A DNA stretch of 64,000 bases from Erysipelotrichaceae bacterium (lineage in GTDB: Bacteria; Bacillota_I; Bacilli_A; RFN20; CAG-449). Below the pieces are notes generated by a model, which saw only the letters and a program-made list of their open reading frames with translations, was not told the DNA's origin and did not search any database. Numbering within the stretch: position 1 is the first letter of the stretch; each line of letters starts with the position of its first letter. Of the stretch, positions 5,825-63,650 are shown one piece after another. The stretch is from NCBI GenBank assembly GCA_015059095.1, contig SVBA01000009.1:3228-67227 (forward strand), in the 5' to 3' direction. A program made the translations under genes and the position numbers.

Positions 5825-5836
5825 TAAGGGATAATT

Positions 5837-6478
5837 ATGTTAATAGGGGCAATAATAGTAGTTTCACTTCTATTAGTTGGATATGGTTTCCTTATTTTTA
5901 CTCCATTAGTTAAAGAACAATTAGAAAAAAAGACTTTTCAAAAGAATTTTTATACTGATGTTTATCAACTAGCGATAGATAAGGATTTCTATGTGATTAA
6001 TGATGTTGTATTAGAAATTGATACTAAATTCATTCATTTTAATCACATCCTTTTTGGTGACAAGTATATTTATTGCATCTGTGATTCTTATTTTGATGGT
6101 CCAATATCAGGTAAGTATTCTGATCAACAATGGTTCTTATATAAAAAGAATGGTCAATTAGAACATATTAAAAATCCTTTATTATTACATCGTACTAGAT
6201 TATCTTATGTTACTTCAGCTTTAAGAGCAGAAGAATTATTTGTTGGTATATGTGTAGTTAATGAATCATGTATCGTTGATGAAATTCAAGATATACCGGA
6301 TAATTTAGTAGTTGTTAATGTTCATGAGTTTAAAGACTATATTTTTAAAAGAGAAAAGGAAAATGTTGCTCCAATTAATTCAATTCAACTTGATTCTCTA
6401 GTTCAACAAATTTATCAAAAAAATCTTCAATCTAGAGAAAAAGAAAAAGAAATAATAGTGAAACAAAATATAAATTAA
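5837..6478 (+). CDS. membrane-anchored NERD-domain (nuclease-related) protein
   Basis: N-terminal TM helix, then a core (VINDVVLEIDTKFIHFNHILFGDKYIYCI) that resembles the NERD domain. Confidence 0.45.
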   Translation: MLIGAIIVVSLLLVGYGFLIFTPLVKEQLEKKTFQKNFYTDVYQLAIDKDFYVINDVVLEIDTKFIHFNHILFGDKYIYCICDSYFDGPISGKYSDQQWFLYKKNGQLEHIKNPLLLHRTRLSYVTSALRAEELFVGICVVNESCIVDEIQDIPDNLVVVNVHEFKDYIFKREKENVAPINSIQLDSLVQQIYQKNLQSREKEKEIIVKQNIN

Positions 6479-6481
6479 TCA

Positions 6482-6541
6482 ATAACCTCCATCAATTGGA
6501 GGTTTTTATTTTTAAAATAAAAAGAGGACTAAATCCTCTTA
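6482..6541. terminator. pair of back-to-back rho-independent terminators
   Basis: AACCTCCATCAATTGGAGGTT followed by T-run (+ strand) and AAGAGGATTTAGTCCTCTT followed by T-run (- strand), between convergent genes. Confidence 0.6.
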
Positions 6542-6549
6542 AAATGTAA

Positions 6550-6789
6550 TTAATCTCTATGATGAGAATCAAATACTTTATCTCTTCTAGATAAATCTAC
6601 AAATAATAATAAGATATTGATGATTGCAGCGATAGCAATAATAACATAAATTACTCTAGCGCCCATATTTAATCCACCTGTGATTGTTGTTACTAAGTCA
6701 AAATCGAATAGACCTACTAATCCCCAGTTGATACCACCAATAATTGTTAAGACTAAACAGATCTTATGTACATAATTCATAGTTTGCAT
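6550..6789 (-). CDS. DUF378 small membrane protein
   Basis: GGINWGLVGLF motif and two TM helices, typical of DUF378 (YuzA-like). Confidence 0.7.
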   Translation of the reverse strand: MQTMNYVHKICLVLTIIGGINWGLVGLFDFDLVTTITGGLNMGARVIYVIIAIAAIINILLLFVDLSRRDKVFDSHHRD

Positions 6790-6875
6790 CTCCTTTTATT
6801 TTTATTATGTGTAAAAGATTATTTTTTAATACATATTTTATTTATTCTTTTCATATTGTTTATTGAGGTGGCTAT

Positions 6876-7877
6876 ATGGTTAAGAAAATTATTGCAGGAA
6901 TTCTTGTTTTAGCGATTATTGTACTCGCTGGTTTTAAAATCTTCTATAAAGGAGATGATGTGTCTAAGAAACTAGAGTCTTTAGGTGAAAATCTAACAAT
7001 GTATCATACAGAAGCAACAATGGATATTGAAACTAAAGATGAAGTGAGATCTTTTTATGTAACAGTTGATTATAAACTTGATAATGATAACGATTATTTT
7101 AGAATCTCATTATTAGATAAAAATATTAATCAAGAACAAATAATGTTGAGAAATGAAGAAGGTGTGTATGTATTAACACCAAAATTAAATCAAGTTTATC
7201 AATTTAAAGGTGATTATCCTTTAAATAGTCCTAAACCTTATTTATATCATTCATTAATCTCTTCGTTTAAAGAAAAAGATACTAATGTTGAAAAATTAAA
7301 CGATGGATATTTAATTTCTTATGATTGTGAATATGAGAATTCTCCTTCATGGAAAAAGCAAGATGTGAAATTATCTCAAGATTTAAAACCTGTATGGGTG
7401 AATATCTATGATGAAAGTAATAATGTTGTTGTCGAAATTAATTTTGCTAAAGTAGATTTTTCTCCTACATATTCTGAAGATCATTTTAGTGTCAATAAGA
7501 ATATGGAAACTTCTAGAAAAGAAGTAATTTCTTCAAGTGGTGAAGTAGAATTGCCTTATCTTCCAGAAGTGAGCGTATCTTCAACTTTAAAAGAACAAAC
7601 TGAAGCAACAGTTAATGGAGAAACAGTGTATATTTTAACTTATGAAGGAAGCAAAGAATTTACTATTACTCAAAGATTGTTAGAAGATTCAGAAGAAATA
7701 TTATTTGCTCAAGTAAGTGGAAGTATTGTTGAATTACCACTAGGTATTGGATATTATAATCAACAAAACTTACTATTTATACATAATGGAGTTGAATATA
7801 GAATCTACTCGGATTCATTAAGCGTTAATGAAATGATTGAAGTATTAGATTCAATGGATGTTGTAATAGAAAAATAG
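6876..7877 (+). CDS. membrane-anchored LolA-like/DUF4367-like protein (hypothetical)
   Basis: N-terminal TM anchor followed by a beta-rich domain. The family assignment is tentative. GAGGTGG RBS. Confidence 0.3.
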   Translation: MVKKIIAGILVLAIIVLAGFKIFYKGDDVSKKLESLGENLTMYHTEATMDIETKDEVRSFYVTVDYKLDNDNDYFRISLLDKNINQEQIMLRNEEGVYVLTPKLNQVYQFKGDYPLNSPKPYLYHSLISSFKEKDTNVEKLNDGYLISYDCEYENSPSWKKQDVKLSQDLKPVWVNIYDESNNVVVEINFAKVDFSPTYSEDHFSVNKNMETSRKEVISSSGEVELPYLPEVSVSSTLKEQTEATVNGETVYILTYEGSKEFTITQRLLEDSEEILFAQVSGSIVELPLGIGYYNQQNLLFIHNGVEYRIYSDSLSVNEMIEVLDSMDVVIEK

Positions 7878-7888
7878 GGATTTTATCC

Positions 7889-9655
7889 CTATTTTGTTTG
7901 ATTATAAATATTAACTAATTTATTAACTTTACGGTATTCAATAAGTGGTAAAGTCTTATCTCTTTGACCAAATAAAGGAGAAGAGATATGTTTAATATTA
8001 AGATTGATAAATAGTTCAATTAATGTCCAGTTATGAACTTCTGTTGCAATGATTGTTCCTTTATATGAGCCAAGACGAGAAATCATATCTGAGAATAAAA
8101 TTAATGGTTGAGAATTAGAAACATTAGAGAATGATGTACCATTAATGATGAAATAATCAAATAATTTTAAGATTTCAGGAAGTAAAACTAATGATGTAGA
8201 AGTGATTTCTAACCCAATAGTTAAGTTATGATGTTTAAGTTTTCTTAAGATTTTTGTTGTCTCATTTACATCTATATCATCGATGTCTTTATCGTTTAAA
8301 ATAAAGATGGTATTTACATTCTTAGGACGTTCGATTCTTGTGAAAATCTCAATTATTTCTTCATAGTACGATAACTTAATTGACATAGTAACAAATTGAG
8401 TAGAATATGCTCTTGAAGAAGAGAAAGTATATCCTGAATTTGTCTCTAAATATAATACTCTTAATAAGTCTACTAAGAAATTATTATGTGATGCATATTC
8501 AAGCATACTAGTAATAGAATATACAACTGATTTTGGAGCGGATAATAAACAATCATATCCAAACACTGTTCCATCTTTTGTATTTAATATTGGAGTATAT
8601 CGACAAGTAAATAATCTACGGTCAATATTTCTTTTAATGTTGGTTATTATTTGTGAAACGTTTTCTTGATGTTTGATAGAGTCATGATCATAAATTAATA
8701 CATCTGTAGATAAATTATTTGTTTCTGCATAGATTGCTACTTCTCTAGCAAATCTAGTTAGTGTTGTGAAATCGGATTCTTGTTTCTTTTCTTGATTAAT
8801 CCCGATTCGATAGGAAATGGAATCATCTGTAGAACTTAAACCTAACGTTTTTTGAATGACTTTTGCAAAGCTATGTCCAAGGGCAATCGCTTCATTTTTT
8901 GTTCTCATTTTAAAATCTACAATAACAATTTCATTTGATTTTAACTGACATAAATATCTCGAAGGGGATAAAAATTTAACTAATCTAGATATTAGTAAAG
9001 TGAATAATGTAAAGTCGAAATCTGTATTTTCCTTTTCTACTGTATCTAAAGAAGATAATCTAATTAAGAATAAGGTACGAGGATTATCTTCATAGTCTAA
9101 TAAGATTTTTGGCATTTCTGTATAATAAACAATATTAGTTTTTGAATTCTTCCTTCTTTTATTTTTCTTAATGGTTGGAAATAAACGAGATTCAAGATGA
9201 ATTATTTTATCCTCATAATTGATATGAGTAACGTCGATAACTGTAAATATTGGTTGTTTAACATTTTTTACTTTAGTTGTTACTTCTAAATGGTTAGGCG
9301 CAGTGTGATCTACTTTTACTAACTCGTTTAACCAAACTTGTAATCTAACTTTTTCTCCTGGAGAAAAGCAATTATAAAACCATTCAAGATTTTCTTTTCT
9401 TTTTTTAGATAGATTTCTTTTATCAACTGAATAAACATAATTTTTATCAAAGTGAATAGAAAAGTAGCGTACATTGTTATCTTCGTAAGTAACAATTTGT
9501 CTTAATTTTTTTGTTCTAATAAAAATACAAGTAAGAATTAAGATGGTTATAAGGATAATGAACATTATTAAAAACATAACTACATACCACTTAGTAAATA
9601 GATTTAATAATTTTTCAAATGTAATGTTTTCAAAAAAATCTTTAATCTTATCCAT
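7889..9655 (-). CDS. membrane-anchored GGDEF/EAL-like protein with degenerate catalytic motifs (likely inactive)
   Basis: N-terminal TM. The C-terminal domain follows the EAL pattern but is degenerate: GYDCLL where EALxR is expected, then GLEITSTS (for LEITE), INGTSFSN (for DDFGTGYS) and HISSPLFG (for QGYLF). A weak GGDEF-like middle domain is also degenerate. Confidence 0.45.
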   Translation of the reverse strand: MDKIKDFFENITFEKLLNLFTKWYVVMFLIMFIILITILILTCIFIRTKKLRQIVTYEDNNVRYFSIHFDKNYVYSVDKRNLSKKRKENLEWFYNCFSPGEKVRLQVWLNELVKVDHTAPNHLEVTTKVKNVKQPIFTVIDVTHINYEDKIIHLESRLFPTIKKNKRRKNSKTNIVYYTEMPKILLDYEDNPRTLFLIRLSSLDTVEKENTDFDFTLFTLLISRLVKFLSPSRYLCQLKSNEIVIVDFKMRTKNEAIALGHSFAKVIQKTLGLSSTDDSISYRIGINQEKKQESDFTTLTRFAREVAIYAETNNLSTDVLIYDHDSIKHQENVSQIITNIKRNIDRRLFTCRYTPILNTKDGTVFGYDCLLSAPKSVVYSITSMLEYASHNNFLVDLLRVLYLETNSGYTFSSSRAYSTQFVTMSIKLSYYEEIIEIFTRIERPKNVNTIFILNDKDIDDIDVNETTKILRKLKHHNLTIGLEITSTSLVLLPEILKLFDYFIINGTSFSNVSNSQPLILFSDMISRLGSYKGTIIATEVHNWTLIELFINLNIKHISSPLFGQRDKTLPLIEYRKVNKLVNIYNQTK

Positions 9656-9780
9656 AACAATTCCTCGTAATTATTATATCTAATAATATTTATATTTCCA
9701 ATAATAATCTAAATAATAATTTTTACATTATTTCAAAGAAATAAACATTATGTTATACTTTTAAAAAGGAGTTTATTTTT

Positions 9781-12735
9781 ATGAAATACTTTTTAAATAC
9801 TACTAATTATTATAATTTTGAAGTTATTAATGATAAAACTATTAGGCCACGTTCATATTTTATTCCTTATAAGGACAGTAATTTATTAAATATTACTTCA
9901 CTTATGGAAGAAAGATATTCTTCTAATTTAGTAAAAGTATTAAATGGAGACTGGAATTTTAAATTTTATAAAAATCCTAACTATTTAGATATTAATTTAG
10001 ATACTGAAAAAGTAGATTTTGATGTTATTGATGTTCCTTCGGTGTGGCAATATCGTCATTACGATAAACCGTTTTATTTAAATTGTAGATATCAATTTCC
10101 TTGTAAGCCTCCTATGATTCCTACTTTAAATAAAGTAGGAAAGTGTTTTAATGCTTTTGGTAATGGAAAGTTTTTTCATTATATGAAACCATTAGAAGAT
10201 GAATATAATTTTGTGGGTATATATCAAAAAGAAATTCAAATTAATAAATTAAAAAATAAGATGTATATTTTAACATTTCTAGGAGTTGCTTCTTGCTTTG
10301 ATTTATATATTAATGGAAAATATGTAGGTTATGCAGAAGGATCTCATAATATGCATGAGTTTGATTGTAGCAATTTTTTTATCGATGGAAATAATGAAAT
10401 TGTTGTAGTAGTTAGAAGATGGTGTAATGGATCATATTTAGAGTGTCAAGATATGTTCCGAAATAATGGTATTTTTAGAGACGTATTATTAAAAGAAGAA
10501 GAATATATCTTTGATTATTCTTTAAATACTAGAAAAAGAAATGGAAAATATGATTTAGAAGTTAAAGTGAATTTACGTAAAGAAGCAAAGTTAGTAGTTT
10601 CTTTGCTTGGTATAAAAAATGAATTTACTTTAGAAAAAAAGAAAAATCATATTATTAGTTTTAAGGATTTAGATGTAAAAGAATGGAACGCCGAAGAACC
10701 AAATACTTATATTTTACTTATTCAAGTTATGAGTGATGGTGTGAATGTAGAATCTATTAGGAAATATATTGGTTTTAAGGAAGTGAAAATTAAAGAAGAT
10801 AAATTCTATTTAAATGGTAAACTTATTAAGATTAAAGGCGTTAATCATCATGATACAAGTCCTAAAAATGGGTATTATATGACTCCAAAAGAAATAGAAA
10901 AAGATATATTGCTTTGTAAAGAATATAATGTAAATACGATAAGGACTTCTCATTATCCTAGTGATCCTTTATTGTTAGATTTGGCCACATTTTATGGAAT
11001 ATATATAATTGATGAAGCAGATTTAGAGACTCATGGTTGTCAAGTTGGAACATTAATGAATTTTAATTTGATTTCAAAAGATCCAAAGTGGGAACGTCAT
11101 TATTTAGATAGGGCAATACATCTATTTGAAAGAGATAAAAATAATAGTTGTATTATCATGTGGAGTCTAGGTAATGAAGCTGGTGGATATCAAAATCAAG
11201 ATAAAATGTATGAGTATTTTAAAAAGAATTCTCCTCTACCAGTTCATTATGAAAGTGTAGTACATTCAAAAAGGAAGGCATACGATGTTGGTTCGCAAAT
11301 GTATCCTTCTTTAGAAATGGTAGAAAGTGTAGGATTACATAAATGTAAGATAAAAGAATTTAATGACCGTCCGTATATATTATGCGAGTACGCCCATGCT
11401 ATGGGAGTAGGACCAGGAGCATTAAAAGAATATATGGATTTATTCTATAAGTATGACAATTTAATGGGTGGCTGTATTTGGGAAATGGTTGACCATTCTT
11501 ATTTAGATGAAAAAGGTGTATATAGATATGGGGGAGATCATAATGAATATATGCACGATGGTAACTTCTGTGTAGATGGTTTGTTCTATCCTGATAGAAC
11601 TCCTTCAACAGGAGCAAAGCTAATGAAGTATGAATATCGTCCATTAATCATTACTCATATTAAAGAAAATATATTTGAATTATTTAATACAAACGCTTTT
11701 ATTGATGCTAGTGAATATGTTGTAAGATTTAAAGTTAAAAATGAGGAGATTACTAGGAGTTTTTCCCTAAAAAGTCTATCAAAAATGAAATTCGAGTTAC
11801 CTATTAATTATAATGAAGAAAATATAATTTATATTAAAGTATATTATAAAGATAATTTGGTTTCAGAAGAGTCATTATTAATTAATTATCAAGTAGAACA
11901 AGAAGAGAAGTTATCTTCTCATGCTAAATTAGAAAATAATCAATTAATCTTTAGTGATGGAAAGATATATTTTGAAAATGAAAAATTAATCATCAAATAT
12001 CTAAATGAAAAAATAGAATATGCTGATTATGGTACTTTATTATTTAGAGCACCTACTGACAATGATTTTAATACTTTTGGATTTAAGTTATTTCATGATA
12101 ACGTGAATCAAGAAAATAAAATATCTTCTATTACTTATCAAGAGGGTAAGATTCACTTGACGACATTAATTAATAGTGGAAAAGATGTATTTATAAATGA
12201 AGAAGAGATTGAAGTATCTTCAGAAGGAAAAATTGTTTTTACTTCTATTTTAAAAACTAAGAAAGCTAAAAATGATTTATTTAGATTTGCAAAATCATTT
12301 AAATTAAGTAAAGAATTCAATAAAGTTACTTATTTTGGTAGAAACGAAGAATCTTATTGTGATATGAAAAATTATGCTTTAGTGCAAGAAGATTCTAGAT
12401 TAATAAAAAATATGGTTGAACCAAATATTCGTCCTCAAGAAAGTGGTAATAGATGTGATTGTAAATACGCTATCATTTCCAATGATTCTATTTATGTAAA
12501 ATTTAAAGCATTGGAAGATAGTTTTGAATTGGGAGCAAAGCCATATTCTGACAAAGAATTATTATCTATGAAACATAGAGATGATGAAACTAATAGTGGA
12601 ACATATATCAATATTTGTAAATTTAATAGAGGTATTGGTACAGGAGCATGCGGCCCAATAACTTTGGATAAATACAAATATTATCCAAATAAAGAATACA
12701 AATTGAAATTTGTAATTGAGTTAGGAAGAAAATAA
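9781..12735 (+). CDS. lacZ: beta-galactosidase, GH2 LacZ type
   Basis: GVNHHD, WSLGNEAGG and ILCEYAHAMGVGPG motifs match the LacZ catalytic region. 984 aa. Confidence 0.85.
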   Translation: MKYFLNTTNYYNFEVINDKTIRPRSYFIPYKDSNLLNITSLMEERYSSNLVKVLNGDWNFKFYKNPNYLDINLDTEKVDFDVIDVPSVWQYRHYDKPFYLNCRYQFPCKPPMIPTLNKVGKCFNAFGNGKFFHYMKPLEDEYNFVGIYQKEIQINKLKNKMYILTFLGVASCFDLYINGKYVGYAEGSHNMHEFDCSNFFIDGNNEIVVVVRRWCNGSYLECQDMFRNNGIFRDVLLKEEEYIFDYSLNTRKRNGKYDLEVKVNLRKEAKLVVSLLGIKNEFTLEKKKNHIISFKDLDVKEWNAEEPNTYILLIQVMSDGVNVESIRKYIGFKEVKIKEDKFYLNGKLIKIKGVNHHDTSPKNGYYMTPKEIEKDILLCKEYNVNTIRTSHYPSDPLLLDLATFYGIYIIDEADLETHGCQVGTLMNFNLISKDPKWERHYLDRAIHLFERDKNNSCIIMWSLGNEAGGYQNQDKMYEYFKKNSPLPVHYESVVHSKRKAYDVGSQMYPSLEMVESVGLHKCKIKEFNDRPYILCEYAHAMGVGPGALKEYMDLFYKYDNLMGGCIWEMVDHSYLDEKGVYRYGGDHNEYMHDGNFCVDGLFYPDRTPSTGAKLMKYEYRPLIITHIKENIFELFNTNAFIDASEYVVRFKVKNEEITRSFSLKSLSKMKFELPINYNEENIIYIKVYYKDNLVSEESLLINYQVEQEEKLSSHAKLENNQLIFSDGKIYFENEKLIIKYLNEKIEYADYGTLLFRAPTDNDFNTFGFKLFHDNVNQENKISSITYQEGKIHLTTLINSGKDVFINEEEIEVSSEGKIVFTSILKTKKAKNDLFRFAKSFKLSKEFNKVTYFGRNEESYCDMKNYALVQEDSRLIKNMVEPNIRPQESGNRCDCKYAIISNDSIYVKFKALEDSFELGAKPYSDKELLSMKHRDDETNSGTYINICKFNRGIGTGACGPITLDKYKYYPNKEYKLKFVIELGRK

Positions 12736-12736
12736 T

Positions 12737-13414
12737 ATGAGAGATATTTTACTAGTAGATTTAGATGATACATTATTAGATTTTTCTAAAGCAGAAAAAG
12801 AGGCTTTAGAAAAAGTTTTAGTAGCTTATGGTATAGATAATAATGAAGAAAATCATCAAAAATATTATAAAATTAATAAAGATTATTGGAAAAAATATGA
12901 ACTACATCAAATAAAACGAGAATCTCTTTTAGGAAAAAGATTTGAAGATTTCTTTGAATTATTTAATAAAAAAGTCGATGGAGATAAGGTGAATGAATTG
13001 TATTTCTCTTATTTATCTGAAGGAGCATATTTAATTGATAATGCCTTAGAATTTTGTGAAAAATGTAAAAAAGACGGATACAAATTAATAATTGTTTCAA
13101 ATGGTGTAGGAAGTGTACAAAAACCTAGAATAGAAAAATCTGGATTAAAAAAATACTTTGATAGAATTTATCTTTCTGAAGAAGTAGGTTATAATAAACC
13201 AGATATAGAGTTTTATACAAGAGTTTTGCTTGATTATTATCAACAAGAAAGAATGGTAATGATTGGCGATAGTTTATCGAGCGATATTCAAGGTGGTATT
13301 AACTTTAATATTCCTACGATTTGGTACAATCCTAATCATCTAAAAAGTGATTTGCCGAATTTTGAAGTAGATAATTTAATGGATATATTTAAAATATTGG
13401 AGGAAAATTTATGA
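12737..13414 (+). CDS. HAD-IA family hydrolase (YjjG-like nucleotidase/phosphatase)
   Basis: Motif [12 protein letters not shown], then SNG, K and [11 protein letters not shown] motifs. Starts 2 nt after the lacZ stop. Confidence 0.7.
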
Positions 13415-13788
13415 AAATAGCTTTAATTGCCCATGATAAGAAAAAACAAGATATGATTGATTTATGCGTTAAATATAGAGATGTATTGGATGGTCATGAT
13501 TTATACGCTACAGGAACAACAGGTACTATGGTAATGGGAGAAACAGGTCTTAAAATTATTAGAATGAAGTCTGGTCCTTTAGGAGGAGACCAACAAATTG
13601 GTTCAATGGTTGCAGAAAAGAATTTAGATATGATTATTTTCTTAAGAGATCCTTTGACTGCACAACCTCATGAACCAGATGTTACTGCTTTATTAAGATT
13701 AAGTGATGTTATGAACATTCCTTTAGCGACTAATGTTAGTAGTGCAACAATTATGCTTGAAGATTTAAAATTAAGAAAACAATTGTAA
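13411..13788 (+). CDS. mgsA: methylglyoxal synthase
   Basis: [12 protein letters not shown]...YATGTTG...[10 protein letters not shown] is the MgsA signature. Overlaps the HAD gene by 4 nt. Confidence 0.85.
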
Positions 13789-13799
13789 ATGGTTAGTTT

Positions 13800-14180
13800 A
13801 TGACAAAAGAAAGATTAATTGAATATCGAGATAAATTAAATAATATTGTTTTAATTTATCGAAAGAAAAATAAAAAATGGTCAATTTTATCAACCTTAAT
13901 GATCATCATAGGTATTCTTTTTGTTATTGTTCCAGCGATGATTGTTGGAGATAATAATGGTGAAGATAAACCATTATATTTCTTTGTTTTAGTAATTATC
14001 GGTTTGATTGTTATTATTGGTGGATTATTTTCTCTATGTATTTTTATATATAATAAATCTATAATTATTAAGCATAAAAATTACAAAGATGCGATTTCTC
14101 ATGAACTTACTTATATGTCTAGAAATGGGTTAGAAGAATCTAGCAAGGATTTTTCTTATTTGGATAAAATTAATATTTAG
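13800..14180 (+). CDS. small 2-TM membrane protein (hypothetical)
   Basis: Two hydrophobic helices. Directly upstream of the two-component pair. Confidence 0.35.
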   Translation: MTKERLIEYRDKLNNIVLIYRKKNKKWSILSTLMIIIGILFVIVPAMIVGDNNGEDKPLYFFVLVIIGLIVIIGGLFSLCIFIYNKSIIIKHKNYKDAISHELTYMSRNGLEESSKDFSYLDKINI

Positions 14181-14221
14181 TTAATATAAGTTAGTTAATA
14201 TAAGTATAGGACGGTGAGATT

Positions 14222-14899
14222 ATGATTAAAATTTTATTAGTTGAAGATGATGTTAATCTCAATGATTTAGTTAAAACAATATTAGAAAGAAATGGTTTTT
14301 TAGTAAGTAATTTTTATTCTGCAAATGATGCATTACGCAGCATGGAAAATAGAGCTTACGATTTGATTATTTCTGATATTATGATGCCTAATATTGATGG
14401 ATTTGAATTTGCTAAAGCTATTAGAGAAAATGATAAAAATATTCCGATTTTATTTATGACTGCAAAAGGTGAATTTGAAGACAAATTAAAGAGTTATTCT
14501 ATAGGTGTTGATGATTACATGGTTAAACCAATTGATATTAAAGAGTTGGTTTTAAGAGTAGGTGCTCTTTTAAGAAGAGCAAAAATCAATAATGAACGTA
14601 AAATTCAAATTGGTTCTACCATAATTGATTCGGATTCGTTAAGTATTATAGAAAATGAAGAAGAGATAATTTTGCCTTTAAAAGAATTTAACATTTTATT
14701 TAAATTATTATCAAATCCAGGAAAAATATATACTAGAAGTCAAATTATGAATGAATGCTGGGGTATATACACTGAGTCTATGGATAGAACAATTGATGTT
14801 CATATTACACATTTAAGAGAAAAAATTAAAGACAATCCCAATTTTGAAATTGTTACTGTTAGAGGATTAGGTTATAAGGCGGTAATTAAAAATGGATGA
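14222..14899 (+). CDS. OmpR-family response regulator
   Basis: Receiver domain (LVEDD...D...DIMMP...K) followed by a winged-helix trans_reg_C domain. GGTGAG RBS. Confidence 0.85.
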   Translation: MIKILLVEDDVNLNDLVKTILERNGFLVSNFYSANDALRSMENRAYDLIISDIMMPNIDGFEFAKAIRENDKNIPILFMTAKGEFEDKLKSYSIGVDDYMVKPIDIKELVLRVGALLRRAKINNERKIQIGSTIIDSDSLSIIENEEEIILPLKEFNILFKLLSNPGKIYTRSQIMNECWGIYTESMDRTIDVHITHLREKIKDNPNFEIVTVRGLGYKAVIKNG

Positions 14900-15953
14900 T
14901 CACAGAAGAAGAATTAAAGATAGGGTTGTTACTAAAGTTATCACTATCAGCTTTGTTAGTGTTCTTTTGACTTTTGCTATTTTAGCACTCCTTACTTTTT
15001 TTGCTTTTGAATTTGGTGATTGGGAGATACATAAGCCTTCAGAATTAAAACCTCGCTCTCCATTACTTACTATGGGAATATTAATATTTATTTCTTTAGT
15101 TTTTGGTTTGCTCTTTTCAGCATTTATTTCTACTAGATTCCTTCAACCTGTAAATGAATTAAAGAAAATGACTAGTAGAGTTGCTAAAGGAGATTTTACA
15201 GTTCAAATGGTCGACATTCCGGAGAGCGAATTTGGGGAATTTATACAAGACTTTAATACAATGGTTAAAGAGTTAAGAAAAAATGAAATGTTGAAGAATG
15301 ATTTTGTTTCTAATGTTTCTCACGAGTTTAAAACTCCTTTATCGGTAATTGAAGGTTATGCTACGTTACTTCAAGACCCTTCTTTGAGTGAAGAAGATAG
15401 AAAAAAGTATACTCAAATAATTATTGAATCAACAAAAAAATTAAGTACTTTAGTTAATAATGTTTTAAAGATTTCTAAATTAGATAATCGTAAAATAACA
15501 ATTAATAAAGAAGAGTATTACTTAGATGAACAAATAAGAGAATCAATTTTATCCTATCAAGATGAATGGGTAAACAAAAAAATTGATTTTGATATTGATA
15601 TGGAATCTATATTGATTAATGCAGACAAGAATTTATTAATTAATGTATGGAATAATTTAATCAGTAATGCTATCAAGTTTTCGCCAGAAAACAGTACTAT
15701 TTTTATAACTTTATCAAAAGAAAATGGACAAGCAAAAATTGCTATAAAGGATGAGGGATGTGGCATTCCAAAAGATGATATTCCTTACATTTTTGATAAA
15801 TTCTTTCAAGTTGATAAATCACACAAAAGTAATGGAAATGGATTAGGATTAACTTTGGTAAAAGATATTATTAATTTATTAAAAGGAACAATTGAAGTAG
15901 ATAGTGAAGTAAATAAGGGAACAACTTTTACTATATACTTACCTATAAGGTAA
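14892..15953 (+). CDS. sensor histidine kinase (TM-HAMP-HisKA-HATPase)
   Basis: Two TM helices, H-box SHEFKTPLSVIEGY, N box, and a G box GLGLTLVK. Overlaps the response regulator by 8 nt. Confidence 0.85.
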   Translation: MDDHRRRIKDRVVTKVITISFVSVLLTFAILALLTFFAFEFGDWEIHKPSELKPRSPLLTMGILIFISLVFGLLFSAFISTRFLQPVNELKKMTSRVAKGDFTVQMVDIPESEFGEFIQDFNTMVKELRKNEMLKNDFVSNVSHEFKTPLSVIEGYATLLQDPSLSEEDRKKYTQIIIESTKKLSTLVNNVLKISKLDNRKITINKEEYYLDEQIRESILSYQDEWVNKKIDFDIDMESILINADKNLLINVWNNLISNAIKFSPENSTIFITLSKENGQAKIAIKDEGCGIPKDDIPYIFDKFFQVDKSHKSNGNGLGLTLVKDIINLLKGTIEVDSEVNKGTTFTIYLPIR

Positions 15954-15986
15954 AAAAAACGTTAGGCGGTCCTAACGTTTTATTTT
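15952..15986. terminator. bidirectional rho-independent terminator
   Basis: AACGTTAGG-CGGT-CCTAACGTT hairpin, with an A-run on one side and a T-run on the other, between convergent genes. Confidence 0.7.
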
Positions 15987-15987
15987 G

Positions 15988-17127
15988 CTAAAAATCTTGA
16001 TTGTTGATAGCCTGTTCAACTTTTTCTTCTTCTTTTTGCTTTTTTTCAAGTTCTTCTAAGGCTTCGTCTAATTCAGCTTGTTCGTCTCTTTCTATATCGT
16101 ATTCATCTTCGATTTCACCGACCAATTCTTCGATGATATCTTCAAGAGTAATAATACCTATAATTTTATTATTAGATCTTACAAATGCCATATGTTGGTG
16201 TTCTTTTTGTAAAGTTTTTAACAAGCGAGAAATTTTAATGTTTGGTTTAGTGATGATTGGCTCTGCGATGATAGAATTTAAATCTTGTTCATCATTAATT
16301 AACATTTCATAGAATTCTTTTTGATAAATAATTCCATAAATTGTGCTTACTTTATTAGTTTTGGAAATAGGTAATCTAGAGTAATTATATTTTTCAAATA
16401 TTTCTTGGATAGTGTCATAACTATCGCCATCTTTTACATAAATTACATCTCTACCTTTAGTCATAATATCTTCTACTAATAAGTCACCATATTCGATGGT
16501 ATTTAAAATTAGTTTCTTTTCAATATTATTTAAAACACCTTCCCTTTGAATATTATCTACTAATAATTCGAATTCTTCTTCAGTCATAGTTGGTTCTTCT
16601 TTAATTTTAAATATTTTCTTGATTAACTTATTGAATAATTCAAAAATTAAAGATATAGGATAGAAGATATAGTATAGAACTGTGATAGGGTAAACTACAA
16701 ACATTGCATATTTTTCTGCGACTAATTTTGCTAAAGATTTAGGTAAAATTTCACCACAGATTAAAACTGTAATTGTAACGATGATTGTCATAACTCCAGT
16801 AGAAAAATTTTGTTCAACTGCGATTAAAGTCGCTAGTGAAGTACCTGCAATATTTACAATATTATTTCCTATTAAAATAGTTGAAATAAATCGGTCGTAT
16901 GAGTCTCTTAATTTAAGAGCTAATCTAGCAGTTTTTTTTGTTTTTGCTAAATTTTTCATTCTTATCGTAGAAAAAGATGTAAATGCTGTTTCTGTTGAAG
17001 AAAAGAATGCGGATAAAAGTAATAATAGTACTAATGTACCATATGCTATTATAGGATTTGCTATTAATCCATTACTTAAAATAATCGGCTGCTCGGGAAT
17101 CATATTTCGTTTTATTAAAACCTCCAT
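15988..17127 (-). CDS. CNNM/DUF21-CBS-CorC_HlyC family membrane protein (hemolysin C/CorC-like transporter)
   Basis: DUF21 TM region with SASETAFTS, a CBS pair and a C-terminal CorC_HlyC domain. The true start may be the internal ATG (MIPEQ...), which lies 24 nt downstream. Confidence 0.75.
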   Translation of the reverse strand: MEVLIKRNMIPEQPIILSNGLIANPIIAYGTLVLLLLLSAFFSSTETAFTSFSTIRMKNLAKTKKTARLALKLRDSYDRFISTILIGNNIVNIAGTSLATLIAVEQNFSTGVMTIIVTITVLICGEILPKSLAKLVAEKYAMFVVYPITVLYYIFYPISLIFELFNKLIKKIFKIKEEPTMTEEEFELLVDNIQREGVLNNIEKKLILNTIEYGDLLVEDIMTKGRDVIYVKDGDSYDTIQEIFEKYNYSRLPISKTNKVSTIYGIIYQKEFYEMLINDEQDLNSIIAEPIITKPNIKISRLLKTLQKEHQHMAFVRSNNKIIGIITLEDIIEELVGEIEDEYDIERDEQAELDEALEELEKKQKEEEKVEQAINNQDF

Positions 17128-58534: not shown

Positions 58535-58611
58535 GGTCTATTGGAGAAGCGGCTTAACTCGACGCCCTCTCAAGGCGTTATTCACGGGTTCGAACCCCGT
58601 ATAGATCACCA
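58535..58611 (+). tRNA. tRNA with CUC anticodon (tRNA-Glu-like), CCA encoded; marks the left edge of the island
   Basis: Hand-folded cloverleaf: acceptor GGTCTAT/ATAGATC, D-loop containing GG, anticodon stem ACGCC/GGCGT with loop CTCTCAA, T-arm ACGGG-TTCGAAC-CCCGT, discriminator A, then CCA. Confidence 0.55.
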
Positions 58612-58620
58612 GAATAGTAG

Positions 58621-58690
58621 AACAGGTTTGATACAATGCTATCAAGCCTTTTTTTGTGCTTTTATAAGGGTTCAAATCTCACCCGTAAGG
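58621..58690 (+). repeat. repeat module copy 1: TTGATAC-type terminator hairpin + T-run + tRNA T-arm-like segment
   Basis: GGTTTGATAcaatgcTATCAAGCC, then T7, then GCTTTTATAAGGGTTCAAATCTCACCCGTA. The last part resembles the 3' half (T-arm) of the adjacent tRNA (GGGTTCGAACCCCGTA). Confidence 0.5.
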
Positions 58691-58754
58691 AATTACTTAA
58701 ATGATTATTAATGATTTAAGTGTATAAATTGTTATTTTTAGTGTGTCTATTCGA

Positions 58755-58870
58755 TAAACGATTTAATAGAGTGGTTTCAAAAATTTAAGGACGGTTTCAT
58801 TATTAAACGATTATGTTAAGGTGGTTTCAAAAATAGTTCAAAGGTAGTTTCACACTATTAAACGATTATA
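58755..58870 (+). repeat. iteron array L: about 4 tandem 31-bp units of GGTGGTTTCA-N-TATTAAACGATTAT
   Basis: AAACGATT occurs 3 times and G(G/T)(T/A)GTTTCA occurs 4 times at about 31-bp spacing. Confidence 0.6.
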
Positions 58871-58929
58871 CAAATTCATAGTAAATACAAAGAAAATATG
58901 ATATAATAAATCAAAGGAAGTGGCTATAT

Positions 58930-59730
58930 ATGTTTGAGAGTTTGAAAATAATAAGTGAGTGTAAAAGAACACTTAAAAATCATAATATTAAATATAATGA
59001 AGACTTTAAAATATATAAGAAATTTGGATTAATTCATTGTCAAGTTGACGATTGGAGAGGTCCTGTTGAAGTTGATGGTTTTCCAGTTTTGACAATTAAA
59101 TCAGCCACTTTATTACTTATTGAATCTTGTGCATTTGATCATTATTTGTTGGAGGAAAAAAATAAAAGAGAACAGCTAATTAAAGAATATCCTTTAGGAT
59201 ATGGAGAATATGAAACGAGAAAATATCTTTTTGAAAATATACTAAAAGTCATAAAAGGTTATGATGAAAAACACTATGTTAGTTTAATTAATAAATATAC
59301 AAAGTATTTAAATATGAATAGGAAAACAAAGCAAAGATGGTCATACAATAAATCAACAGAAAAGTTTGAAATTTATCCTATTGCTTCATATTCAGCGGTG
59401 ATTATATCTAAAGCAATAAATACTATTAGAATTTATAATCAAGATCCTTGTGGTGGAAGATTAGATGATAATATTTATAAATTAATATCTGAAAATTTTG
59501 AAGATGGATTATTTAAATTTTCTTTTACTAATAACGGAGAAGACAGATTTTATTTAGAAATTTATAATCCGCAATATGCAGATGGTTCAGACAATTACAT
59601 TATGATTTATAAGGCTGATAAAGTAGTATGGTCGTATATGCCATTTGAAAATAGCGAGTCAAAACAAGAAAGAATATTTATTTTTGATGGAACAAAATTA
59701 AATATTGTTGGTGAAATTAATTTTAAATAA
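58930..59730 (+). CDS. hypothetical protein (266 aa), island gene
   Basis: Soluble protein with no motif I can recognise. AAGGAAG RBS. It is the first gene after iteron array L. Confidence 0.4.
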   Translation: MFESLKIISECKRTLKNHNIKYNEDFKIYKKFGLIHCQVDDWRGPVEVDGFPVLTIKSATLLLIESCAFDHYLLEEKNKREQLIKEYPLGYGEYETRKYLFENILKVIKGYDEKHYVSLINKYTKYLNMNRKTKQRWSYNKSTEKFEIYPIASYSAVIISKAINTIRIYNQDPCGGRLDDNIYKLISENFEDGLFKFSFTNNGEDRFYLEIYNPQYADGSDNYIMIYKADKVVWSYMPFENSESKQERIFIFDGTKLNIVGEINFK

Positions 59731-59770
59731 AGGATTAAAAAAATATCAACGAAAGGATAAAATTATAATT

Positions 59771-60256
59771 ATGATCAATAAGAAAGGTATAATTGGTGAA
59801 TTTATGGAAGAAAATGTAACATTGATTGGCTATAATTCTAAAAAACAGCCTTATATATTTTTAGGTGCAGCTATCTTGGTATTTATTATTGCTATACTGT
59901 GTATATTTTTTGCTGAAGGAAATAAAAAATTTGCATCAATTGCATTGTTTCTTATAGGGATAGGACTCATGATTGGCTTTTTTTATTTGTTAAAATTACC
60001 TCATATAGGTATTAAAGTAATAGATGACAAATACTTATACTTTTATGATAAAGATAATGTGAAAATTATTGATATTAGTAATATTGAAAAAGTAAATTAT
60101 TGGCCAGCAAATTATGGCCTTAAGATTGTTCTTTTCACTTCAAAAGGTAGTGAATATTTTACTTATTTATTATCTAATATCAAAGATGTAAAAAAACATT
60201 TATTATATTTATTTGAAAAAGAAAATATTAAGGTAATAAATAGGTATAGTAAGTAG
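59771..60256 (+). CDS. small membrane protein (2 TM + cytoplasmic domain), island gene
   Basis: The track ORF 59705..60256 begins with TTG. The first ATG (MINKKG) is at 59771. The protein has two TM helices and a roughly 100-aa C-terminal domain. Confidence 0.4.
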   Translation: MINKKGIIGEFMEENVTLIGYNSKKQPYIFLGAAILVFIIAILCIFFAEGNKKFASIALFLIGIGLMIGFFYLLKLPHIGIKVIDDKYLYFYDKDNVKIIDISNIEKVNYWPANYGLKIVLFTSKGSEYFTYLLSNIKDVKKHLLYLFEKENIKVINRYSK

Positions 60257-60411
60257 TATTGAATTATTCTCGATATTAAGTATTGGTGAAAAAATTGCAC
60301 TTGAAGTATTATAGAAAAGAAATGATGGTCTTAGTAAAAATGGCAAAATATTTTCTTTAAAGATGAAAGTATGTATTATAAAAAATTAAGTCCTATGAAA
60401 TAGGATTAAAA

Positions 60412-60585
60412 ATGAAATTAATAAGAGAAGCTAATGATGTAAGTAAAACAGAATTAGCCATTAGATTAAAAGTCAATCGAAAGACAGTTATATTATTAGA
60501 AAAAGGTGATAGGTTACCTTCATTAGAATATATCTATAACTTTTGTAAAATGTTTGATGTTTTGATTGAATTAATGTTAAATTAA
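60412..60585 (+). CDS. small XRE-family HTH regulator (57 aa)
   Basis: Hand translation gives MKLIREANDVSKTELAIRLKVNRKTVILLEKGDRLPSLEYIYNFCKMFDVLIELMLN, a Cro/C1-type HTH. Missing from the track because it is under 60 aa. A perfect palindrome TCCTATgaaATAGGA lies at 60391-60405, overlapping its RBS. Confidence 0.55.
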   Translation: MKLIREANDVSKTELAIRLKVNRKTVILLEKGDRLPSLEYIYNFCKMFDVLIELMLN

Positions 60586-60600
60586 AGGGGGTTATTTTCA

Positions 60601-61494
60601 ATGAAGTTAAATATTGTTGTTTTTATTTTATTTGTAATAATTTATGTTTTGACTATAGTTTTAACAATATTTAAAATCAAAGATATACACAAGAATCCTG
60701 AAAAATATGAGCATGAAGATTTAATTAATGAAACAAATAGAAAATATGCTAACAAATGGGATAAATTTTCTAGTTTTTTTAAATCATTATCTCATCAATA
60801 TGGAATGATAAATATGTTATTATGTTTTGTCTTTGTTGCTTTAGGAACAATATTTATCTTTTCCATAAATAAAGCGTATAGTCAAGGTGAAGGATATATT
60901 ACCTTAGGAACGCAACTAATTGGTTCAATTGGCCTATTATTTTTAGGGATTCCATTATGTATGATAATTATTCCATTGGCAATCAAAAAACCATTCTTTG
61001 TTGTTACAACGTTAGATATGTTTAATACAGACCATAGACCAAAAATATATTTTAAAGGATATATATTATTTTTAGTATTTTTTATAATAACATTTCCATT
61101 TATAACTCTGTCTTGTAACAATTACGTTTATTATGATTCAAATGGCATTTATTCAAATAGATATTTTCAGATTGAAGAAAAGTTTACTTCATATGAAGAA
61201 ATAACAAAGATTGAAATTTATTTAACCTATAAAGAAGAAAAAATATCTGGAGTACATTATGATGTGTATTTAAATGACGGAAGATTTAATATTAATTCAC
61301 CTAGCGGTAAAAAGAAGATATTTGCTGATAATACCTTTACAATACATAATTATGTTATAAATAAAAGTAATTGTGAATTTATTATTACTCCATTAACTGA
61401 AGATGATATTAATTTTTTAGTGGAAAACTATACTAACGATGATTATCAAAAAATTTTAGAAGTCTTTAATGCTGATCAATTAAAGGAGAATTAA
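60601..61494 (+). CDS. polytopic membrane protein (297 aa), island gene
   Basis: AAGGGGG RBS 8 nt upstream and at least five hydrophobic helices. Immediately downstream of the small XRE gene. Confidence 0.4.
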   Translation: MKLNIVVFILFVIIYVLTIVLTIFKIKDIHKNPEKYEHEDLINETNRKYANKWDKFSSFFKSLSHQYGMINMLLCFVFVALGTIFIFSINKAYSQGEGYITLGTQLIGSIGLLFLGIPLCMIIIPLAIKKPFFVVTTLDMFNTDHRPKIYFKGYILFLVFFIITFPFITLSCNNYVYYDSNGIYSNRYFQIEEKFTSYEEITKIEIYLTYKEEKISGVHYDVYLNDGRFNINSPSGKKKIFADNTFTIHNYVINKSNCEFIITPLTEDDINFLVENYTNDDYQKILEVFNADQLKEN

Positions 61495-61495
61495 A

Positions 61496-61984
61496 ATGAA
61501 AATAGGAATTATTAAGGAAAAGAAAGTTGGGTTACTAATATCTACTATTATTTGTCTTATATGTTGTATTTTTCCATTTTTTACTAAATTAGAGTTTATT
61601 GACAAAATATTTATATTCGTTATGCTGTTAATAGCATATTTAATTATATTATTATGTTTTCTAATATCGATGGAATGGTACATAATAGACATAGAATCTA
61701 TTACAGTTAAAAATGTTTTTGGAACAGTAAATAAAGTTTATTATAAAGATGTTAAATATTCTTATGTTAAACGATTACCTGTTTTTACTAGAGATAAAGG
61801 AATCTCTTGCTTATTATTTAATGATGGTAGAAAAGAATGCAGTTTCTTCACAGGTAATAATATAGATAATCATAAAAAATATATTATTAGAATTCCATAT
61901 ACTCAAGAAGTTGTGGATTATTTCAAAAAAAATAATATTGAGTTAAATAATAATTCGATTTTTAAAACTATAATAAATGAATAA
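61496..61984 (+). CDS. small membrane protein (2 TM + cytoplasmic domain), island gene
   Basis: AAGGAG RBS. Same architecture as 59771..60256, with a weak shared motif after TM2 (IIDIESITV versus IIDISNIEKV). Confidence 0.4.
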   Translation: MKIGIIKEKKVGLLISTIICLICCIFPFFTKLEFIDKIFIFVMLLIAYLIILLCFLISMEWYIIDIESITVKNVFGTVNKVYYKDVKYSYVKRLPVFTRDKGISCLLFNDGRKECSFFTGNNIDNHKKYIIRIPYTQEVVDYFKKNNIELNNNSIFKTIINE

Positions 61985-61985
61985 A

Positions 61986-62140
61986 ACAAACGATTTGCTA
62001 GGTGGTTTCATTATTAAACGATTTAGGCAGGTAGTTTCAAATTATTAAACGATTACAACTGATTTTCAGTAATTATTAAACGATATGGTCAGGTGGTTTC
62101 AAATTATTAAACGATTATGGCAACTATTAAACGATTTATT
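61986..62140 (+). repeat. iteron array R: about 4.5 tandem 31-bp units GGTGGTTTCA(A/T)ATTATTAAACGATT
   Basis: TATTAAACGAT appears 5 times at spacings of about 31, 31, 31 and 17 bp. Same unit and same orientation as array L. Confidence 0.65.
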
Positions 62141-62257
62141 AAAATTGTATTAATAGTGTCATACCTTGCCATTTAAGAAGATTAGATTTGATACAATATA
62201 TCAAGCCTTTTTTATTTGCTTTTATAGAGGTTCAAGTTCCACCCGTCTTGTTAAAAG
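62141..62257 (+). repeat. repeat module copy 2 (extended): AAAATTGT...TTGCCATTTAA + TTGATAC hairpin + T-run + GGTTCAAGTTCCACCCGT
   Basis: Aligns with copy 1 (hairpin, T-run, T-arm-like part) and over a longer stretch with copy 3. Confidence 0.5.
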
Positions 62258-62423
62258 ATGATATTGTTTCATTTTTATAACTGAAGTTTAGTGACTGATT
62301 TAATTAAGGAACTGCAGAGATTTTATAACTTTATAACGATTTGATAACAATTTAACGATTACCTAACTTTTTAAGACATCCTCCTAGATTGCACTAAGTT
62401 ATGGTGTTGCACCGCATTCAAGT

Positions 62424-62600
62424 ACCTATGGGCGGTAATAGATAGCTGTACGCAGATTATGGCAATTGATCAGGTGAGACTCCTACCCAACGAAAGTGGA
62501 GTCTTTTTATTATCTCGCATTGATGGATATTTTAATTATTTTTTAATATAATTTATATAGTGAAAATCGACTGATAAATTAGAATTTGACGGTCAAATCC
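62424..62600 (+). repeat. about 180-bp cassette A: conserved 60-nt segment + terminator hairpin + extended -10 promoter
   Basis: ACCTATGGGCGGTAATAGATAGCTGTACGCAGATTATGGCA..., then GAGACTCC...GGAGTC followed by T5, then TTGATG...TAATATAAT. About 88% identical to cassette B at 63475. Confidence 0.55.
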
Positions 62601-62691
62601 ACTCTACCACTGGTTAATTTCCTCACTAAACCAATGGTAGGTGTATTTTATAGAAAATAATTATTACACTAGATACGAAAGGAGATAACTT

Positions 62692-63294
62692 ATGAATCAA
62701 ATTAAAATAGGAAGATTTATTGCTGAATGTAGAAAAAAAGAAAACTTAACCCAAATGCAGTTAGCTGAAAAGTTAAACATCACAGACAAAGCAGTATCTA
62801 AGTGGGAAAGAGGTATAGCAATGCCTGATGCTTCTTTAATGCTTGATCTATGTAGTATTCTTGGTATTAGTGTAAATGAATTATTAAGTGGGGAGAAAAT
62901 TGATGTGGAAAATAATAATAACGAAAAGCTTTTGCTTGATATGGCAAAAGAATTAGAAAACAAAAACAAAACTATTTGGTCATCTATGTGGGCACTTATG
63001 ACTGTAAGTTTGATTACTTTAATTGCAGGTATTTTTATTGCTGCATTTTTGATACCAGAAGGTATCTGGCAACTTGTAACAATTCTTGGTGTTTGTGTTG
63101 TGTTTTTAATACCTTGCATCTACGCTGTAAAATTAGAAGTTAGTGTGGGAGCATATAAATGTAAAAACTGTGGTTATGAAATTGTTCCTACATATAAAGA
63201 AGCAATGATGTCGATGCATAGAGGAACAACTCGTCATTTATTGTGCCCTAAATGCAACAAACGTACTTGGTGTAAAAAAGTAATAAGGAAATAA
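62692..63294 (+). CDS. XRE-family HTH regulator fused to 2 TM helices and a C-terminal zinc-ribbon
   Basis: N-terminal HTH_3 (RFIAECRKKENLTQMQLAEKLNITDKAVSKWERG), two hydrophobic helices, then CKNCGYEIVP...CPKCNKRTWC. AAGGAG RBS. Confidence 0.55.
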   Translation: MNQIKIGRFIAECRKKENLTQMQLAEKLNITDKAVSKWERGIAMPDASLMLDLCSILGISVNELLSGEKIDVENNNNEKLLLDMAKELENKNKTIWSSMWALMTVSLITLIAGIFIAAFLIPEGIWQLVTILGVCVVFLIPCIYAVKLEVSVGAYKCKNCGYEIVPTYKEAMMSMHRGTTRHLLCPKCNKRTWCKKVIRK

Positions 63295-63359
63295 GATTTC
63301 AAATTGAGAGAGCGTCAAATTCCTATTTATCGTTTAGAAATAGGGGTATGCAATTGTAT

Positions 63360-63455
63360 TAAAATTGTGTAACGTTGCCATTTAAAATTACCAATCTTGA
63401 TACAATAAAAAGTATCAAGATTTTTTATTTTTATGGTGTTCAAGTTCAACTCCTT
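63360..63455 (+). repeat. repeat module copy 3: AAAATTGTGTAACGTTGCCATTTAA + perfect 11-bp TTGATAC hairpin + T-run + GGTGTTCAAGTTCAACTCC
   Basis: AATCTTGATACaataaaaaGTATCAAGATT followed by T6. Aligns with copies 1 and 2. Confidence 0.5.
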
Positions 63456-63474
63456 GATATACACAGCATTTAAA

Positions 63475-63640
63475 TACCTATGGACGGTAATAGATAGCTG
63501 TACGCAGATTATGGCAGTTAATCAAGTGAGGCTCCTACTCAATGAAAGTGGAGTCTTTTTATTATCTCGCATTGGTGGACATTTTAGTTGTTTTTTGATA
63601 TAATTTATATGGTGAAAATTGACTGATAAATTAGAATTTG
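63475..63640 (+). repeat. about 170-bp cassette B (near-identical to cassette A)
   Basis: ACCTATGGACGGTAATAGATAGCTGTACGCAGATTATGGCA..., then GAGGCTCC...GGAGTC followed by T5, then TTGGTG...TGATATAAT (extended -10). It ends 10 nt before the next ATG. Confidence 0.55.
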
Positions 63641-63650
63641 TAGGTGTGTT

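Follow-up and report, generated by a model that had tools for sequence, protein, structure and literature searches.

Array L, a set of short direct motifs in front of the first gene of an island in the window (the whole 64-kb stretch of DNA that was analysed), is one of two such arrays, which lie at the left and right ends of a small cassette, C1, that begins exactly after the CCA end of a tRNA-Glu gene and contains no recombinase gene. The reading that we prefer, tentatively and at somewhat less than an even chance, is that arrays L and R are the arms of this cassette, at which a protein encoded by a helper element would dock in trans during cassette recombination. C1 apparently belongs to a widespread and so far undescribed cassette family of gut Bacilli.

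Array L occupies 58755-58868 on the + strand and consists of four B motifs (GKRGTTTCA) and three A motifs (TTAAACGATTA), unevenly spaced and in a single orientation. These motifs, and the promoter element that follows them, were read from the sequence.

58755, 58803-58813 and 58858-58868, + strand: A motif of array L, TAAACGATT(T/A)
58771-58779, 58792-58799, 58821-58829 and 58844-58852, + strand: B motif of array L, G(T/C)(G/A)GTTTCA
58899-58907, + strand: putative extended -10 of the cassette promoter, TGATATAAT, conserved in the contigs L243 and L244, with an overlapping weak match in a consensus scan

The original prediction had described four tandem units of about 31 bp at this place. The motifs are real and lie where they had been reported, but the regular tandem is not borne out: just two complete B-N-A composites are present (58792-58813 and 58844-58868), the B-to-B distances are 21, 30 and 23 nt, and Tandem Repeats Finder, at a minimum score of 30, makes no call. 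Exact TAAACGATT occurs eight times in the 64-kb window, every copy within 58755-62136, against 1.08 expected from shuffles, none of 100 of which reached eight; the composite GGTTTCA-N3-6-TTAAACGAT is found three times where no copy is expected. The array does lie directly upstream of the first island gene, as had been stated, ending 30 nt from the putative extended -10 and 61 nt before the ATG at 58930, and it was rightly held not to be CRISPR, its bipartite motifs being contiguous, with linkers of 3-14 nt and without unique spacers. Between strains the number of units differs by whole-unit insertions or deletions, over a range of 2-6 (alignment A1). In the window, array L is a partly decayed version of the left-end array. 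Its spacing, less even than that of array R, and the degenerate AATTGTATTAA-like stretch 3' of it (ACAAATTCATAGTAA, 74% like the AATTGTATTAA region after array R; repeat family D13) suggest that it may itself be a decaying copy of a right end.

The limits of C1, and of the cassette that follows it, can be placed by the repeats at their ends.

58535-58611, + strand: tRNA-Glu gene, anticodon CTC (ARAGORN; 56 bits as an Rfam tRNA)
58612-62171: cassette C1, 3,560 bp, starting exactly after the tRNA-Glu CCA
58612-58656, + strand: left end of C1, a P'-type half-site of 16 nt and then TTGATACAAT (58628-58637)
62143-62197, + strand: junction J1, a 55-bp quasi-palindromic core, AATTGTATTAA-N12-TTGC-CA-N16-TTGATACAAT
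62172-63380: cassette C2, 1,209 bp
63343-63406, + strand: junction J2, the end of C2, where one GGGGTATGC unit abuts AATTGTATTAAAATTGTGTAACGTTGCCAT, followed by 16 nt and TTGATACAAT (repeat family D4)

The spacings of the repeats, 3560 and 1209 nt, are the lengths of C1 and C2. At the left end of C1 the TTGATACAAT stem forms a terminator hairpin at 58624-58649, followed by a T-run (terminator scan), and two further copies of this hairpin, with the GGGTTCAAATCTCACCCGT stretch that follows the tRNA, lie behind array R and 1.2 kb beyond that. The outer motifs of the junction, ATTGTATTAA and TTGATACAAT, are inverted (9/10), 55 bp apart and centred on the CA of TTGCCA. Identical geometry is found at the tRNA, where CA lies at 58610-58611 and is followed by 16 nt and by TTGATACAAT from 58628; CA, 16 nt and TTGATAC are arranged in the same way at 62170-62194. 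When the junctions are aligned, likeness begins exactly after the CCA of the tRNA or of TTGCCA. The right halves are identical at 60/79 and 61/79 positions (random 79-mers have a mean of 44 and a maximum of 51), and the left half of the tRNA junction (J0), identical to the next junction at 31/60 positions, is random-like and unrelated to it. The direct repeat that flanks C1 is CCA only. The CCA end of the tRNA-Glu gene (58609-58611) is the insertion point and the B half of attL, and we infer that crossover at J1 takes place at CA, 62170-62171. A longer copy of the window's contig (L001) continues downstream with at least three more cassettes, bounded by like junctions.

Several further features accompany these junctions. 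A T-arm-like hairpin, GGGTTCAAATCTCACCCGT, follows each junction terminator (58668-58686 on the + strand, 62228-62246 and 63436-63452; repeat families D5/D8) and is a conserved component of the left-end module; its equivalent elsewhere is GGGGTTC(A/G)AGTCTCC, with GGGGTTCGAGTCTCC at other loci, compatible with G-U pairing, and it could be a relic of a tRNA 3'-fragment or a structured element. A search of 56-64 kb for RNA families found nothing beyond the tRNA, and a short sRNA or conserved stem within the junction was rejected because the sequences, judged by eye, do not keep a stem. Inside the conserved half-site, on the minus strand, a promoter-like ATGGCA-17-TACAAT (from 62172 to 62144 and from 63381 to 63353; a consensus match only) would read back into the array, against the direction of the cassette genes. 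The left ends of C2 and C3 share a 184-nt repeat, 90% identical (62410-62593 and 63462-63645), which holds a T-run hairpin (GAGACTCC..GGAGTCTTTTT) and a near-consensus promoter, TGGACA-17-TATAAT with TG, at 63576-63604, and which looks like a shared 'expression platform' of a second cassette type. The XRE gene of C2 is bracketed by the inverted repeat GATAAATTAGAATTTG ... CAAATTCCTATTTATC (62573-62594 / 63310-63331); the left motif of this pair, with an RBS, also precedes four consecutive genes downstream (L001 14696, 15369, 15896 and 16360), and the two motifs may mark the boundary of gene-level modules. In most junction loci AAATTCCTATTTATCGTTTAGAAAT lies 3' of the last stop codon. Finally, among the contigs that carry the window's MFS gene (L135-L138), several metagenome contigs with the same flanking genes break within about 200-900 nt after that gene. 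The breaks thus lie close to tRNA-Glu or in the early part of the first cassette, which is consistent with assembly breaks at a repeated junction or with strain variation in cassette content.

The second array of C1 is the more regular of the two, and related motifs continue into C2.

61988-62137, + strand: array R, about five B-N3-5-A units with a regular 31-nt period (repeat families D2/D3)
62332-62372, + strand: A-type motifs TATAACGATTT and TTTAACGATTAC at the left end of C2 (Tandem Repeats Finder, period 19)

Array R has the orientation of array L and sits between the last stop codon and J1; Tandem Repeats Finder reports it at 61988-62116, with a period of 31, 4.3 copies and a score of 120. 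Units of the TTTAACGATTAC kind also occur inside the right-end arrays of other cassettes.

Between the two arrays lie the five cargo genes of C1, as given by the ORF list.

58930-61984, + strand: the five cargo genes together
58930-59730, + strand: 266-aa protein
ending at 60256, + strand: membrane protein of about 181-183 aa
60412-60585, + strand: 57-aa XRE HTH protein, the sole family match in C1 (Pfam, PADLOC, PHROGs)
60601-61494, + strand: 297-aa membrane protein
61496-61984, + strand: 162-aa membrane protein

Searches with Pfam, PADLOC and PHROGs found neither a recombinase nor a replication protein in C1. The 266-aa protein and the XRE proteins had been put forward as binders of the array; this is unlikely, given that the same type of array flanks unrelated cargo. 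The 266-aa protein was also rejected, as binder or as Rep, on its own account: it has no Pfam, PADLOC or PHROG match, its confident structural model (pLDDT 82) matches no PDB fold and contains no recognisable DNA-binding or Rep-like fold, and its homologues are found in many contexts without the arrays. It is cargo. One homologue is the sole gene of a 1.2-kb island in a GC-richer relative (L130, GCA_052832505.1, GC 48%, 5761-6991). This island is inserted at the 3' end of rpsI, is flanked by 15-bp direct repeats, CTCCAAGAGATAATT, and has at its right end two copies of GGTGCAA and nine of ACGATAT, at about 10-nt spacing.

A scan with the junction pattern AATTGTATTAA-N-TTGCCAT-N-TGATAC identified 46 further contigs, 20 from GTDB species-representative genomes and 26 from metagenomes. 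Their sources are gut and rumen MAGs of Erysipelotrichaceae, 'Bacilli', Anaeroplasma/Anaeroplasmataceae and Acholeplasmatales; a few small contigs filed under Agathobacter, Clostridia and Alphaproteobacteria are possibly mis-binned. The repeat unit, for which a search in related taxa had been suggested, is also found outside the window, so that absence elsewhere, named as grounds for refuting the original prediction, does not apply. Contigs with a common left half of the junction often differ in the right half, and vice versa, and the break always falls directly after TTGCCA(T). The left end of C1, including array L, is found in four contexts: in the window it follows tRNA-Glu, in L243 it stands behind other cassettes downstream of tmRNA, and in L244 and L125 it adjoins other right ends. 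The right half in L125 is the native 3' flank of tmRNA as in L243. Because this left end occurs in four contexts and junction halves are exchanged between contigs, the cassettes are discrete units moved by site-specific recombination. C1 itself is a cis-mobilizable element (CIME / pseudo-SCC type): it is bounded by att sites, lacks a recombinase, stands in tandem with others and appears in varied contexts. Surveyed with Pfam at the level of the recurrent (top-25) families, 136 ORFs around the 46 junctions yielded cargo only, namely RhuM, GNAT, Fic, nucleotidyltransferases, methylases and AbiEii-like AAA proteins.

Arrays accompany most members of this junction family. Among 43 distinct junctions, 36 have at least two repeat units within 150 nt upstream, and the mean is 3.5 units, as against 0.13 in control windows. 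In these 36 junctions 2-5 phased units directly adjoin the core; the spacings of the units cluster at 19-22 and 28-32 nt, that is, two or three helical turns. The last unit of the right end abuts AATTGTATTAA, so that the right-hand array stands in fixed register with the junction. The type of unit depends on the cassette (GGGTATGC, GGGGTTGC, GGGTGCGA, GGGTACGG or, in the window, the bipartite GTGGTTTCA+TTAAACGATTA) and covaries with the 12 nt between AATTGTATTAA and TTGCCAT. A-type TTTAACGATTAC units are interspersed within GGGTATGC arrays, and cassettes of the GGGTATGC type have B units at the right end only. Left-end arrays are found in the C1-type left-end module only, which accounts for 3/37 right-hand contexts. 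Right ends of the GGGGTGTGCA type (L127 7940-8360 and L129 3395-3480) have an inverted copy between the last direct unit and TGTATCAAAA (GTGTGCAA-N15-TTGCACAC), and in L127 a second array, four copies of GGGGGTTGCA, comes after the junction.

The B/A arrays flank unrelated cargo in L253, L260, L261, L270 and L282, in each of which the L array stands in front of that cargo. In 33 non-redundant units taken from many contigs, the B motif is GTGGTTTCA in 27 and the A motif TAAACGATT in 28, and the flanking hexamers take 25-26 different forms. The view that these look like multimeric protein-binding sites therefore stands, in so far as the motifs are conserved and the flanks variable. Since the arrays are, in addition, independent of the cargo, the pattern points to selection for binding of a protein that would not be encoded by the cassette.

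No recombinase gene, and in particular no gene for a large serine recombinase (LSR), lies in the window. At the end of the viral contig L247 (IMGVR_UViG_3300024272_004407), five GGGTGCGAA units spaced by 21 nt adjoin a junction of the same type. Two LSR genes lie directly upstream of this array and a third further up; the region 7111-17077 encodes LSRs of 616, 431 and 535 aa, together with a 328-aa protein with three tandem XRE HTH domains and a 135-aa HTH protein. L247 is a prophage, because it carries a phage distal tail (Dit) protein; the contig ends before the left end of the prophage. An identical copy, from the metagenome of L001, has a different right half. L263, L273 and L125 carry relatives of the L247 LSR on the same strand as their junctions and 4-6 kb upstream of them, and with L247 included LSR genes recur 0-6 kb upstream of the junction and in its orientation. 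Downstream of about 50 more distant relatives of the prophage LSR, at 53-66% identity to it, arrays of this kind are absent, for which reason the arrays were rejected as a general feature of related LSR genes, and no small HTH partner of the LSR is shared across the helper elements. The tandem-HTH protein of 328 aa is a candidate binder of direct-repeat arrays.

The junction resembles an LSR att site in its anatomy. At 55 bp it falls within the size of such sites, about 40-60 bp, it has partial dyad symmetry around a central dinucleotide, and the identity between partners is very short: tRNA-Glu (..CACCAG..), tmRNA (..CACCAT..) and element (..TTGCCAT..) have just CCA(T) in common. A crossover identity of this length fits the 2-bp exchange of the serine type and not the 6-8-bp overlap of the tyrosine type. 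The best reading is that the cassettes are recombinase-less, cis-mobilizable and served in trans by LSRs of helper elements. One respect in which the junctions depart from LSR sites is that the latter are simple, whereas arrays abut the core in 36/43 junctions. Characterised serine integrases use simple sites of <50 bp without accessory DNA sites (PMC1470463), and an arm-like array at the att core is therefore without precedent among them.

On the reading that we prefer, site-specific recombination would have placed C1 at the CCA end of tRNA-Glu, where further such cassettes follow it in tandem. The arrays would be putative docking sites at which a sequence-specific DNA-binding protein attaches; a helper that carries a recombinase, for example a prophage, would supply it in trans. 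Candidates for this protein are a directionality factor, an accessory factor or the recombinase itself. Phasing by two to three turns would place it on one face of the helix, where it would organise the cassette ends for excision and integration in the manner of arm-type or accessory sites. Array L lies at about -35 to -150 relative to the promoter, for which reason the protein could, in addition, control cassette expression. Against this reading count the simple sites of characterised serine integrases, the LSR relatives without arrays, the window without an LSR gene and the irregularity of array L, with its possible descent from a right end; it also counts against it that L arrays belong to one left-end module family, beside a promoter, which fits a purely regulatory role equally well. 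A bolder extension, which we regard as doubtful, is that serine recombinases would here, for the first time, be seen to work with arm-like accessory DNA: arrays that diversify together with the core would recruit extra recombinase subunits or a DNA-binding directionality factor, and the resulting synaptic complex would excise and integrate recombinase-less, integron-like cassettes at the CCA ends of tRNA and tmRNA genes in gut Erysipelotrichaceae, Anaeroplasma and Acholeplasmatales.

A purely regulatory role of array L is the main rival, although we consider it unlikely. Array L would be an operator or activator array at which a trans regulator switches the cargo, and array R a second regulatory site or a roadblock, with no part in recombination. 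In C1-type left-end modules a conserved promoter, AATGACA..17..TGTGATATAAT or, in the window, TGATATAAT, is indeed always found directly 3' of the array, whose final unit stands about 25 nt from the -35 region, and other left-end types lack L arrays. However, what is universal is a right-end array, which follows the last stop codon, precedes the terminator, keeps register with the junction and is not close to a promoter; the type of unit covaries with the recombination core; and the GGGTATGC-type cassettes, with B units at their right end only, have nothing of the kind at the left.

That the arrays are instead arm-type sites of a tyrosine integrase encoded elsewhere, in a classical complex attP at tRNA and tmRNA 3' ends, seems very improbable. 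Direct repeats on two arms and the targeting of tRNA/tmRNA 3' ends are, as is well established, typical of tyrosine integrases (PMC1470463). Yet among the recurrent (top-25) families of the 136 ORFs around the 46 junctions, as in the region of the window, there is no such integrase, while LSRs recur near the junctions; the partner identity is too short for the overlap that such an enzyme uses; and the core has dyad symmetry over 55 bp around a central dinucleotide. We give just as little credence to array L being a functionless relic, the decayed right end of an ancient empty cassette fused to the promoter of the next. Its irregularity and decayed A units, the likeness of ACAAATTCATAGTAA to the AATTGTATTAA region and the confinement of L arrays to one module family would all agree with this, but the B and A motifs remain intact across diverged contigs in which the spacers vary, and changes in unit number by whole units are typical of maintained arrays.

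The weakest alternative is the Rep-iteron origin of the original prediction, with Rep acting in cis or from a helper on an excised circle: direct repeats phased at 20-22 or about 31 nt do resemble iterons and a circular form would join array R, junction and array L contiguously, but C1 (Pfam, PADLOC, PHROGs) and the 136 ORFs around the 46 junctions contain no initiator (Rep), primase or helicase gene, blastn of the island against phage and plasmid collections gave no match, just 9-11 of each 20-31 nt are conserved, and the arrays lie at both ends of the element, with array R in register with the recombination junction. A scan of viral contigs with a single composite unit gave single, chance-like matches only, and the matches to two A motifs were rejected as unrelated low-complexity repeats.

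If the reading that we prefer is correct, abundant gut and rumen Bacilli hold an undescribed integron-like or SCC-like cassette system, in which small promoter-bearing cassettes with GNAT, Fic, RhuM, nucleotidyltransferase, methylase or Abi-like genes stack at tRNA/tmRNA ends and would owe their mobility to serine recombinases that helper prophages encode. It is for the simplicity of their sites that genome engineering values serine integrases. Natural accessory arrays that evolve together with the core would point to a new layer of control over directionality, specificity or helper dependence, and would provide orthogonal sets of paired sites and factors. In annotation, cassette limits can be set to the single base with the pattern AATTGTATTAA-N12-TTGCCAT-N15-TTGATAC.

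Among known systems, the SCC and pseudo-SCC elements of staphylococci are moved by the CcrAB large serine recombinases at the 3' end of rlmH. They accrete in tandem at one site; many have short repeats at their ends and no recombinase, and presumably rely on the serine recombinase of another element, acting in trans. The present cassettes resemble them in tandem accretion at one chromosomal site, in recombinase-less elements with short bounding repeats and in presumed trans mobilisation by a serine recombinase; they differ in their targets, which are the CCA ends of tRNA-Glu and tmRNA (rpsI in one relative), and in being much smaller, at 0.7-3.6 kb. We know of no phased repeat arrays that abut the att core in SCC. 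A comparison between SCC and ssrA islands has been drawn for Dehalococcoides, whose ssrA islands (DsiB, a CcrB-like serine recombinase) lie in tandem downstream of tmRNA with short repeats, some of them without an integration module and read as cis-mobilizable (PMC3146451). Tandem islands, short repeats and the partial absence of integration modules are shared with the cassettes described here, whereas the 20-bp ssrA repeat and insertion in the T-loop are not; no arrays are reported there, and the phylum is another. Tycheposons of Prochlorococcus reportedly integrate as cargo elements at tRNA/tmRNA genes, where they form islands that include cargo-only satellites. The likeness lies in cargo-carrying elements, some cargo-only, at such genes; the host lineage and the att anatomy differ, and to our knowledge tycheposons have no phased arrays at their ends.

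The arms of lambda-type attP sites provide a parallel for the arrays as such, with direct repeats that flank the core and serve as binding sites of integrase and of bending or directionality factors (PMC1470463). Direct repeats flank the core on both arms here too, but the core is serine-like (a 55-bp dyad, with CCA as the identity) and the recombinases nearby are serine only. Plasmid iterons, of about 17-22 bp, are likewise head-to-tail repeats in helical phase; the cassettes differ in having no Rep gene, arrays at both ends, a short conserved core and a tie to the recombination junction. The literature searched describes tandem serine-recombinase islands and cis-mobilizable elements; we found in it no description of phased arrays or accessory sites at serine-type att sites, or of this cassette family of Erysipelotrichaceae. 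Integron cassettes, lastly, are comparable in being small, mostly with 1-5 genes, in lacking a recombinase and in serial insertion at a fixed site. IntI was not found, and the junctions are not attC hairpins; what sets the present cassettes apart from those of integrons is that they have their own promoters and terminators and are associated with recombinases of the serine type.
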